Below, one piece after another: positions 17,296 through 19,339 of a DNA stretch of 64,000 nucleotides (position 1 is the first letter of the stretch; each line of letters begins with the position of its first letter). The notes beneath the pieces were generated by a model that was not told the DNA's origin, did not search any database, and saw nothing but the letters and a program-made list of their open reading frames with translations. Position numbers and translations under genes: made by a program. The stretch is from Myxococcota bacterium (GTDB taxonomy: Bacteria > Myxococcota_A > UBA9160 > JAFDDA01), in assembly GCA_965228475.1 (NCBI GenBank), contig OZ245817.1:2144001-2208000 (forward strand). The letters are read 5' to 3'.

Positions 17296-17346
17296 ACGGT
17301 TTTTGCGCGCTCCTGAGCGGCTCTTGCCGGGGGCGGGCCGGCCGCG

Positions 17347-17374
17347 TCAAGTCACGCAAGTGCGCGGCCGATGG
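17347..17374 (+). promoter_or_regulatory. Candidate sigma-28 promoter for the PP2C phosphatase
   Basis: TCAA(GT)-N16-GCCGATGG, ending 18 nt before the ATG. Confidence 0.55.
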
Positions 17375-17392
17375 ACTCTTCAGGAGCTCCTC

Positions 17393-18124
17393 ATGCGTTT
17401 CGAAACCGCCGCGATTTCCGACGTAGGCCGCCGGCGACAAGCCAACGAGGACCGCTACGCCCTCGATCCGGATCTGGGGCTTTTCCTGGTGGCGGACGGC
17501 ATGGGCGGGCACCGGGCCGGCCGGACCGCGAGCGAGCTGGCGAGCGCCGCCGTCCTGGCCGCCATCCATACGCTCCAGGACGCGCCCGCGAGCCTCGCCG
17601 AGCGGCTGCGCTACGCCGTTTCCGCCGCCAATCGCGAGATCTTCTCCATGGCCGCCGAGCAGGCCGAGCTCGCCGGGATGGGAACCACCCTGGTCGTCCT
17701 GCTGGCGGGCGACGAGCGGGTCAGCCTGGCCCACGTCGGCGACAGCCGCGCCTACCTCGTGCGGGCCGGCGGGATCCGCCAGCTCACCGACGACCACAGC
17801 CTCGTGGCCGAGCTCCTGCGCCGCCAGAAGATCACCGCGGACGATGCCCGCGAGCACCCCCATCGACACGTTCTCACGCGCGCCCTCGGCGTGCGCCCGA
17901 GCGTCGAGCCGGATCTCGCCGAGATGACGCCCCTCGACGGCGACGTCTTCGTGCTCTGCTCCGACGGCCTGACGAACCACCTGCAGGACACCGAGATCGC
18001 GAAGATCGTGAGCTCGACGTCGGTGCTGGAAGATGCGGCACGTGCGTTGGTGGAGTGTGCGAATTCACGAGGTGGAGAGGACAACATCACGGTCGTCCTC
18101 GTCCGGTCCCGGTCTCAAGACTGA
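17393..18124 (+). CDS. PP2C-family Ser/Thr protein phosphatase (Stp1/PrpC-like)
   Basis: SDVGRRRQANED, VADGMGGH, MGTT, HVGDSRAY, LCSDGL and GGEDNIT. AGGAG RBS. Confidence 0.93.
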   Translation: MRFETAAISDVGRRRQANEDRYALDPDLGLFLVADGMGGHRAGRTASELASAAVLAAIHTLQDAPASLAERLRYAVSAANREIFSMAAEQAELAGMGTTLVVLLAGDERVSLAHVGDSRAYLVRAGGIRQLTDDHSLVAELLRRQKITADDAREHPHRHVLTRALGVRPSVEPDLAEMTPLDGDVFVLCSDGLTNHLQDTEIAKIVSSTSVLEDAARALVECANSRGGEDNITVVLVRSRSQD

Positions 18125-18256
18125 GCGCCGCGCGCTCGGGCAGGTGGGCCTTCCGGCTCATGGCTCGCCCGGCTAGCACTCATCGCACGGGTACGACTTG
18201 GTAGTCCCGGGCTGCGCTTTACTTCCCCGGAAGGCCCACCTGCCCGAGCACGCTCC
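18125..18256 (+). repeat. Structured intergenic element, copy 1 (23-bp perfect stem, conserved internal motifs)
   Basis: 18134-18156 is the perfect reverse complement of 18227-18249. Contains TCCGGCTCATGGCTCGCCC and GGGCTGCGCTTTACTTC. Confidence 0.85.
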
Positions 18257-18318
18257 CAGGCCGCTAGCGACTCCGCGCTCACGATAGAAAAAAACAAAGA
18301 GAGACTACGAGCCGTCGA

Positions 18319-18448
18319 GGAGCGTGGGAGGCTGACGAGGGCCTCAGGCGAAGTAAAGCGCAGCCCGCACTCGGCAATCAGAAACGTCTCGGCAGTTCGA
18401 CAGGGCGAGCCATGAGCCGGAGGCCCTCGTCAGCCTCCCACGCGGCGC
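18319..18448 (-). repeat. Structured intergenic element, copy 2, inverted (24-bp perfect stem of different sequence)
   Basis: 18322-18345 pairs with 18420-18443. Same 19- and 17-nt internal motifs and same 8-nt termini as copy 1, on the minus strand. Confidence 0.85.
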
Positions 18449-18463: not shown

Positions 18464-19228
18464 CTAGCGCTCGGCCATCGCCTTGAGCCGGCTCCGCAGT
18501 CGGAGCACGGCCTTGGTGTGGATCTGGCACACGCGGGACTCGGTGATCCCGAGGATGTTCCCGATCTCCTTCATGTTCAGATCTTCGTAGTAGTAGAGCG
18601 AGACCACGAGCCGCTCCTTTTGCGGGAGCGAGGAGATCGTGTCCGCCACCACGTGCTTCATCTCGATCAGCTTGAGCGAAGCGAAGGGGTTCTCGGCCTG
18701 GACGTCTTCGATGATGTCCGTGTATCCGCCGGTGCGTTCGCCGTCGGCGTCGCGGCTGCGGATCTCTTCCAGGTTCACGAGCGAGATGCCGCGCACCTGG
18801 TTCAGCAGTTCGTGGAACTTGTCGAGCTGGATGCCGAGGGAGTCGGCGACTTCTTCCTCGTTGGCGGCGCGGCCGAGGCGCTGCTCCATGTCCGCGTAGG
18901 CGCGCTCGATCTTGCGGCCCTTCTGGCGCACCGAGCGCGGCACCCAGTCGAGGGATCGGAGCTGGTCGAGGATCGCGCCCTTGATCCGGAACTCCGCGTA
19001 GGTCTTGAACTTGCAGTTCTTCTCGGGGTCGTATTTCTCGATCGCGTCCATCAGCCCGATCACGCCGGTGTTGTGGAGGTCGTCGAGGTCGATGTGGGAA
19101 GGGAGCCGGACGGCGATGCGGTTCACGATGTACCGGATGAGCGGCGTGTGCTCGAGGACGATGCTCTCTCGCACCTGGTTGGTGATGCCCTCGCTTTTCT
19201 CCTTGGCCTCGCGCAGCATCGTTTCCAT
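18464..19228 (-). CDS. fliA: RNA polymerase sigma-28 factor (FliA/WhiG family)
   Basis: RLPSHIDLDDL, GLMDAIEKYDP, RIKGAILDQLRSLDWVPRSVR and LYYYEDLNMKEIG..TESRVCQIH. GGAGGG before the ATG at 19228. Confidence 0.92.
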   Translation of the reverse strand: METMLREAKEKSEGITNQVRESIVLEHTPLIRYIVNRIAVRLPSHIDLDDLHNTGVIGLMDAIEKYDPEKNCKFKTYAEFRIKGAILDQLRSLDWVPRSVRQKGRKIERAYADMEQRLGRAANEEEVADSLGIQLDKFHELLNQVRGISLVNLEEIRSRDADGERTGGYTDIIEDVQAENPFASLKLIEMKHVVADTISSLPQKERLVVSLYYYEDLNMKEIGNILGITESRVCQIHTKAVLRLRSRLKAMAER

Positions 19229-19322
19229 CGTCCCCTCCATTTGAACCCCCAGAAGTTGCGCGGTGGGCCTGGCGTCCCTGCCTAGGCTTTGCCCCCGCGA
19301 TGCGCCTTGGAGCAGGGGACAA

Positions 19323-19339
19323 AGCACGGCTCATGCCAA
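19323..19339 (-). promoter_or_regulatory. Sigma-54 promoter upstream of the sigma-28 gene
   Basis: Minus strand TTGGCATGAGCCGTGCT = GG-N10-GC. Confidence 0.65.

Follow-up and report, generated by a model that had tools for sequence, protein, structure and literature searches.

A family of REPIN-like hairpin repeats from Myxococcota that may act as folded single-stranded DNA

The gap between two converging genes of a Myxococcota bacterium, located in a stretch of 64,000 nucleotides (the window), holds two inverted copies of a structured element of about 130 bp. What is this pair, an RNA motif or a mobile DNA hairpin, and what do its fixed and variable parts do? An earlier note on this stretch had considered both possibilities and had proposed that the variable core could be a guide or cargo. 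The pair and its flanking genes are laid out below; B denotes the folded strand, recognised by the beginning GAAGTAAAGCGCAG (GAARTAAAGCGCAG), and A is the complement of B.

17303..18124, plus strand: PP2C phosphatase gene (Pfam), flanking; its stop codon abuts copy 1
18125..18257, folded (B) strand minus: copy 1
18130..18156: outer arm of copy 1, gene-proximal
18156..18170, minus strand: invariant motif 2 of copy 1, GGGCGAGCCATGAGC on B
18171..18208, minus strand: variable core of copy 1, 38 nt, homologous filler and not a guide
18209..18225, minus strand: invariant motif 1 of copy 1, GAAGTAAAGCGCAGCCC on B
18211-18217: GC-GCA-GC mini-hairpin word inside motif 1 of copy 1
18227..18253: outer arm of copy 1, spacer-proximal
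18253-18256, minus strand: GGAG at the foot of the spacer-proximal arm of copy 1, on B
18258..18318: doublet spacer, with an A-rich tract at 18283-18301
18319..18448, folded (B) strand plus: copy 2
18319-18322: GGAG of copy 2
18322..18349: outer arm of copy 2, spacer-proximal
18350..18366, plus strand: invariant motif 1 of copy 2, with the mini-hairpin word at 18358-18364
18367..18402, plus strand: variable core of copy 2, 36 nt
18403..18417, plus strand: invariant motif 2 of copy 2
18416..18443: outer arm of copy 2, gene-proximal
18464..19327, minus strand: sigma-70-family (FliA-like) gene (Pfam), flanking; its stop lies about 20 nt from copy 2

The element pair and its family in the source genome

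The arms pair over 27 bp in copy 1 and 28 bp in copy 2, of which 23 and 24, respectively, are contiguous and perfect. These contiguous parts are the outer stems of the earlier note, whose other observations (two inverted copies between a PP2C and a FliA-like sigma gene, motifs of 19 and 17 nt, termini of 8 nt and an A-rich tract) are all found in the sequence, the genes being assigned by Pfam. The folding z-scores of the pair range from -5.9 to -7.7 over both strands with RNA and DNA parameters, and none of 200 shuffles folds as well in any strand/parameter setting. The pair is not an assembly artefact, since two DNA runs among the four sequencing runs examined contain the stretch unaltered, one of the two possibly representing the source sample itself; the single RNA run holds 5% of the words and has no depth over most of the pair. 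The copies had been thought to read in the sense of their upstream genes, but the folding strand is the opposite one. Either copy lies behind the stop of a gene and has A orientation with respect to that gene, so that the B strands point away from the spacer. No sigma-70-type promoter was found in this spacer, and an A-rich tract is also present in the orthologous spacer of G001, a relative of the same genus.

The genome-wide motif search that had been proposed reveals further copies. The source genome (G000, one contig, 96% complete) carries 16, including three doublets, one of which is the window pair; 15 have exact motif pairs and the sixteenth displays a one-base insertion. A covariance model retrieves the same 16 copies and nothing more at an E-value of 0.01, and the 17-mer motif occurs 15 times in the genome for 0.0005 expected. 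In the 15-copy alignment, 94% of the cells pair and 25 of the 35 pairs are changed on both sides, which exceeds all 500 shuffles and all slid registers. The arms depart from the consensus at 34% and 30% of positions and the core at 35%, as against 0 of 480 positions for the two invariant motifs. The proposed selection on structure and on invariant loop motifs is thus borne out. The copies are mutually distant, cores being at most 78% alike between any two, and no decayed copy was found in this genome. With regard to a replichore bias, the orientations of single copies are mixed along the chromosome, whose skew curve has no clean origin.

The two window cores had been described as unrelated, and taken alone they nearly are (34% identity vs 29% for shuffled sequences); across the 16 copies, however, cores are homologous, with a mean identity of 50% vs 29% after shuffling. 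Their length is 35-38 nt, their longest genome matches reach 12-17 nt vs 12-16 nt for shuffles, and they match their own flanks over 8.0 nt vs 7.8 nt for other flanks. Being homologous and matching the genome and their own flanks no more than controls do, the cores are not guides. The arms are also homologous between copies (51% vs 38% shuffled); together with the arm conservation seen in another carrier, G044, this excludes that they derive from target DNA.

The spacers of the other two doublets (genome positions 1389452-1389571 and 4018049-4018159) contain a hairpin resembling a bidirectional terminator, which has the centre GCGCAAAGCGC in both but a different stem in each, whereas the spacer of the window doublet keeps only the A-rich tract.

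The folded strand and the nature of the molecule

Several features point to strand B as the one that folds. On B, G.T pairs are commoner than A.C pairs: 119 vs 9 in the 138 elements, out of 154, that have a stem, and 216 vs 56 with gapped alignment in the 219, out of 255, that have one. The two stem-closing positions, scored in 360 of the 392 elements found, form tandem G.A/A.G in 192, two Watson-Crick pairs in 157 and other combinations in 11; on strand A, the tandem form would correspond to pyrimidine mismatches. Mini-hairpin words in long cores are found 55 times on B vs 13 times on the other strand. The computed energies differ only modestly between strands, B being more stable in 139 of 219 elements as DNA and in 123 of 219 as RNA. 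These counts, like those of loops and orientations below, pool related copies and are not independent.

The loops are of the DNA mini-hairpin type. Among short cores, a c(GNA)g triloop is found in 49 of 67 from genomes and in 107 of 135 from metagenomes; the latter, retrieved with a pattern that left the triloop bases free, include no GNRA tetraloop. Furthermore, the invariant motif holds GC-GCA-GC in 321 of 360 elements and GC-GGA-GC in 27. According to Kimoto and Hirao, GNA alone among the 64 triloops forms a DNA mini-hairpin, RNA counterparts are considerably less stable (for the tetraloop form, melting at 39 C as against 76.5 C), and mini-hairpins occur at priming sites of phages and plasmids (PMC13037366).

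The genomic context also bears on this question. All 53 doublet members are oriented alike, and among the 166 non-doublet copies, 63 lie between converging genes and 5 between diverging genes. Single copies between codirectional genes are found in either orientation (30 vs 22, p=0.33; gene strands come from our own codon score and 43 of 219 copies are unclassed), B being antisense to both neighbours in the 30; this does not fit the 3'-UTR motif in the sense of the upstream gene that had been suggested. A general sense bias (94 vs 31 pooled) vanished once doublets and convergent pairs were separated. From these features, we infer that the element is folded single-stranded DNA (ssDNA) rather than a 3'-UTR RNA. 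K-turn and ribozyme readings were dropped, since 157 of 360 copies have Watson-Crick pairs where the others have G.A pairs or, rarely, other combinations, as was a retron reading, the source genome having no reverse transcriptase gene.

Distribution, mobility and the search for a mobiliser

Copy number varies from 0 to 65 per genome and the distribution is patchy. A relaxed pattern matches 66 of the 225 genomes of the class and is absent from the other 159, including G002 of the same family; it matches none of the 32 genomes of the class's other order. The family is also found in 6 of 121 genomes of a gammaproteobacterial order (that of a Woeseiaceae record), with up to 65 copies, and in one further phylum, that of G044, where two of 301 genomes match and the second match looks like chance. 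Scans of sequence collections gave at least 112 genome loci, mostly from Myxococcota or deltaproteobacterial metagenome-assembled genomes (MAGs) by title, and at least 122 metagenome loci; viral contigs gave no match with long-core and short-core patterns, and annotated phages and plasmids only chance-level ones (E of 0.2 or worse among the matches listed). Across the family, the median stem length is 28 nt and the core ranges from a 3-nt loop to more than 100 nt. The 5' foot of 219 copies reads GGAG in 20, GTAG in 5 and CGAG in 32, and 45% have A at -1; both window copies have GGAG. A tandem array was seen once, in G055 (L327:808-1151), where three head-to-tail copies are spaced by 171-172 nt.

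Comparison of related genomes indicates that doublets come and go as units. G001 carries, in the gap orthologous to that of the window pair, a doublet that differs from it in arms and core lengths and has a motif variant of its own; no doublet is present in G002. Among the 28 site groups of G001, 23 have both flanks syntenic in the source genome, where 6 are filled, by genome-specific variants, and 17 are empty. For three G001 doublet sites that are empty in the source genome, the gaps measure 410 vs 23, 413 vs 8 and 441 vs 52 nt. The doublets of G041 recur with shared spacers, and in G021 and G319 a heterodimeric unit of about 430 bp, with short outer inverted repeats, is found with 84-90% identity at no fewer than 14 other places. 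Its doublet spacing is fixed at 94-95 nt (94 nt in 6 G021 doublets). At one orthologous site of this unit, G320 and G040 lack the element, while G319 has a single copy that is decayed and of a different kind; at another site, a remnant with an internal deletion is left. Eight G021/G319 doublets show no target duplication, and TA flanks both sides of some G044 copies, where it can equally be read as part of an inverted repeat. The relatives are too distant for exact insertion junctions.

In the G044 subfamily, the arms are conserved and the ends are sharp, with YYA and TRR as flanking sequences; they frequently fall on a TAG stop. In 13 near-identical copies, 13 arm changes, one of them a single-base deletion, are mirrored on both arms and 11 affect one arm. 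This ratio points to arm-to-arm copying as the probable process, some of the mirrored changes possibly being shared by descent. One G044 copy has its core split by an island of about 10 kb (L306:1060-11256, G044:C10) with, by inspection, a subtilisin-like ORF and IS-like remnants, an unrelated cargo. In G289, a DUF5076 gene lies between two divergent copies (L469:718-1417) and may be a passenger; as a partner it was rejected, being a single case with no homologue in the source genome.

The earlier note had proposed to look for a co-occurring RAYT or IS110 gene; profile search detects neither in the source genome, which has no match to PF01797, PF00078, PF04480, PF13358 or PF02371 (Y1, RT, DUF559, IS630 and IS110, respectively) and no multicopy IS. 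None of the Y1 loci examined (30 of relatives and 8 of 15 in G041-G045) carries a full element, and the presence of Y1 does not track that of the element, the carriers G000, G006, G007 and G032 being devoid of it. Four of nine GIY-YIG loci were examined (two encoding 95-98 aa and two 292-299 aa) and none is flanked by the element; the other five genes encode 636-741 aa. IS630 was not found in G000, G041, G153 and G241, and no arm pair encloses a transposase among the G044 arm matches inspected. As MAGs lose IS genes, such absences in MAGs are weak evidence. The copies adjoin unrelated genes, for the most part housekeeping ones: when 318 and 294 neighbouring ORFs were clustered, no family exceeded 6 and 3 members, respectively, and Pfam searches on 63 small neighbours returned housekeeping families or none.

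Two Y1 loci deserve mention in their own right. In G042, a RAYT of 157 aa is accompanied by a classical GTAG REP array of its own (L228:1940-2079), which has no relation to the present family. In G045, long palindromic elements of 210 nt that end in GTAG stand on either side of a Y1 gene (L230:892-1106 and 2102-2312).

Known systems, rival explanations and related hairpins

No description of the family was found in the literature searched, including by exact motif strings, a coverage that leaves aside most subscription journals and the motif catalogues of supplements. The comparison with Rfam, proposed earlier, gave nothing at gathering score and only weak miRNA-hairpin noise at the E-value threshold. 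The family is real and, as far as searched, undescribed.

The closest known elements are REPs, REPINs and BIMEs, which are associated with RAYT (TnpA-REP) transposases. As described in the literature (PMC3116915, PMC8266576, PMC6006769, PMC3733652), they are likewise intergenic, located behind stop codons and between converging genes; REPINs are inverted doublets of fixed spacing that replicate as units, as found here, and strand-specific ssDNA hairpins with compensatory arm changes and patchy bursts, often with a word ending in AG at the 5' foot. The transposase cleaves ssDNA strand-specifically at C|T. However, REPINs have conserved arms, a variable spacer and stems of 6-20 bp, whereas here the arms are free, the centre is fixed and the stem is about 28 bp. 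The family works most like REPINs, yet it is not one of them: its arms are not conserved, and no RAYT is found beside any copy or in the source genome. Of 219 copies, 25 have the GTAG/GGAG foot.

Other systems share some of these properties. The NTS (SRM) repeats of the GIY-YIG ssDNA nuclease SsnA are likewise oriented ssDNA hairpins whose copy number varies, and a small nuclease cleaves them in trans; they differ by their size (20-50 nt), conserved stem, free loop and position beside their own gene (PMC11893778). None of the GIY-YIG genes examined carries the present element. RIME and Bru-RS are palindromic intergenic repeats of the same kind as ERIC and CIR. The latter resemble the element by their size (about 110-130 nt), long terminal arms, location at gene 3' ends and unclear mobiliser, but ERIC-type termini are conserved with a TA duplication (PMC3184786). 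Among the matches listed for plasmids of Rhizobiales or others, none of the element is above chance level. The TwoAYGGAY RNA (RF01731; 10.64898/2026.09.22.753630) is also a multi-copy structured intergenic motif with divergent doublets and variable copy number; the present element has neither AYGGAY loops nor an Rfam match, and its loops are of the DNA mini-hairpin type. The attC sites of integrons have RYYYAAC/GTTRRRY ends and are found in cassette arrays. The attC-likeness evoked in the earlier note is not supported, as the alignment reveals no such ends, the copies are dispersed without cassette arrays and the 32-nt centre is invariant. What the two would share is a strand-specific ssDNA hairpin of variable sequence recognised by its shape (for the ssDNA nature of attC, see PMC5737381).

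We favour, as a reading of the sequences that is rather probable, that the window pair is a doublet of a non-autonomous, REPIN-like repeat acting as folded ssDNA, a development of the ssDNA-hairpin option of the earlier note, which is supported. Strand B is built to form a stem of about 28 bp, free in sequence, on which a fixed asymmetric junction sits as a cap. This junction, on single-stranded B, would be bound by an unlinked nuclease/ligase, either of HUH or Ssn type or of an unrecognised kind, which would then cut close to the stem's foot, guided by distance and not by the sequence of the arms. The cut piece would be joined into intergenic DNA and survive mostly behind stop codons and between converging genes; its arms would be kept matched by arm-to-arm copying, through template switching or mismatch correction in the hairpin, and the core would only set length. 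It is possible, and we propose it only tentatively, that an unrecognised system of single-strand mobilisation uses the element as its substrate. Its enzyme, outside Y1, GIY-YIG and DDE, would read the mini-hairpin/tandem-G.A junction, measure a stem of about 28 bp regardless of its sequence and rebuild one arm from the other at each move; this system would have crossed at least three phyla and have at least two other families of the source genome, with variable stems and fixed centres, as further substrates.

The strongest point against a purely selfish spread, and for retention by the host, is the perfection of the motifs in old, mutually distant copies of the source genome. These intact motifs (0 of 480 positions off consensus, with arms and core at 30-35%), the lack of decayed copies and the six sites shared with G001, yet filled by genome-specific variants, look like site-by-site selection, and the copies of this genome may be old and now kept by the host. 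In its full form, this explanation holds that the copies spread once as a repeat and now serve as landing sites for a chromosomal protein, such as a primase or restart protein, an SsnA-like ssDNA nuclease linked to transformation or an enzyme that processes hairpins; the mini-hairpins at phage and plasmid priming sites (PMC13037366) and the SsnA/NTS precedent (PMC11893778) would suit it. We consider it rather unlikely: of the 225 genomes of the class, 159 gave no match, one of them from the same family; G044, G021 and G319 show bursts of near-identical copies together with decayed or internally deleted ones; and none of the Ssn-like genes examined adjoins a copy. It is unlikely that the element acts as an RNA, either one whose B form is bound by a protein and terminates or processes transcripts running through between converging genes, or a small RNA in itself. 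RNA, too, forms G.U and tandem G.A pairs, the distal copy would be in B form on any read-through transcript, and convergent gaps hold 63 of 166 non-doublet copies vs 5 in divergent ones; the spread resembles that of TwoAYGGAY RNAs, doublets and copy-number variation included, and covariation hardly tells ssDNA from RNA motifs (PMC5737381). Nevertheless, the loops are GNA triloops in place of GNRA or UNCG tetraloops, B is antisense to both neighbours in 30 codirectional copies, Rfam has no match and the spacer has no promoter-like site.

A classical MITE of the ERIC/CIR/RIME type, whose terminal inverted repeats would be recognised by a DDE transposase that duplicates TA or CTAG, is very unlikely. 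The conserved arms and sharp YYA/TRR-flanked ends of the G044 subfamily, the short outer inverted repeats of the G021/G319 doublets and a size and position matching those of ERIC-like repeats (PMC3184786) would agree with it. Family-wide, however, it is the arms that vary and the centre that stays fixed, eight G021/G319 doublets lack a target duplication, and neither IS630 (in the four genomes named above) nor an enclosed transposase (among the G044 arm matches inspected) was found. That the variable core selects targets, as in a bridge RNA or a CRISPR-like guide, is extremely improbable: the near-fixed core length within a subfamily (35-38 nt in the source genome) would fit, but cores are homologous, match the genome and their own flanks at control level, have no phage or plasmid match above chance level among those listed and shrink to 3 nt in many relatives, and IS110 is absent from the source genome. 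The same homology, lack of excess matches and 3-nt loops leave the guide or cargo role that had been proposed without support.

Comparative screens usually cannot separate structured RNA from structured ssDNA, but the loop alphabet, through GNA triloops, does so here and provides a cheap test for other 'orphan RNA' motifs. The 27-nt minimal core can be synthesised and used as bait, so that the missing protein can be searched for directly; if this protein is a shape-and-ruler nuclease or recombinase, it would represent a new class of tools. In addition, mirrored arm changes provide a way to gauge, in nature, how often the arms of bacterial palindromes convert one another. If the family is merely a decayed REP-like one, it would be a modest addition to a long list.

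The source genome also harbours other hairpin families. A second one with the same plan (genome positions 1259032, 1955029, 1955182, 2046523, 3261556, 3270546, 3364185, 3436107, 3436260 and 4495530, with two doublets) has arms of about 30 bp and a loop of 44-45 nt with a fixed TAAACC start and GACGY end; several of its copies have the foot word CCGAGKAG in common with the family studied here. A third (27666, 30998, 1252902 and 1253074) has a loop of 45-47 nt that begins GTCCCGACTCTCC, and families with longer loops lie at 207610/207850, 680757/680985 and 4317731/4319911. Finally, three near-identical perfect hairpins of 30-35 bp with short or 30-nt loops are found at 197094, 2033525 and 4473200, and a CTAG-ended MITE-like palindrome at 4306490.
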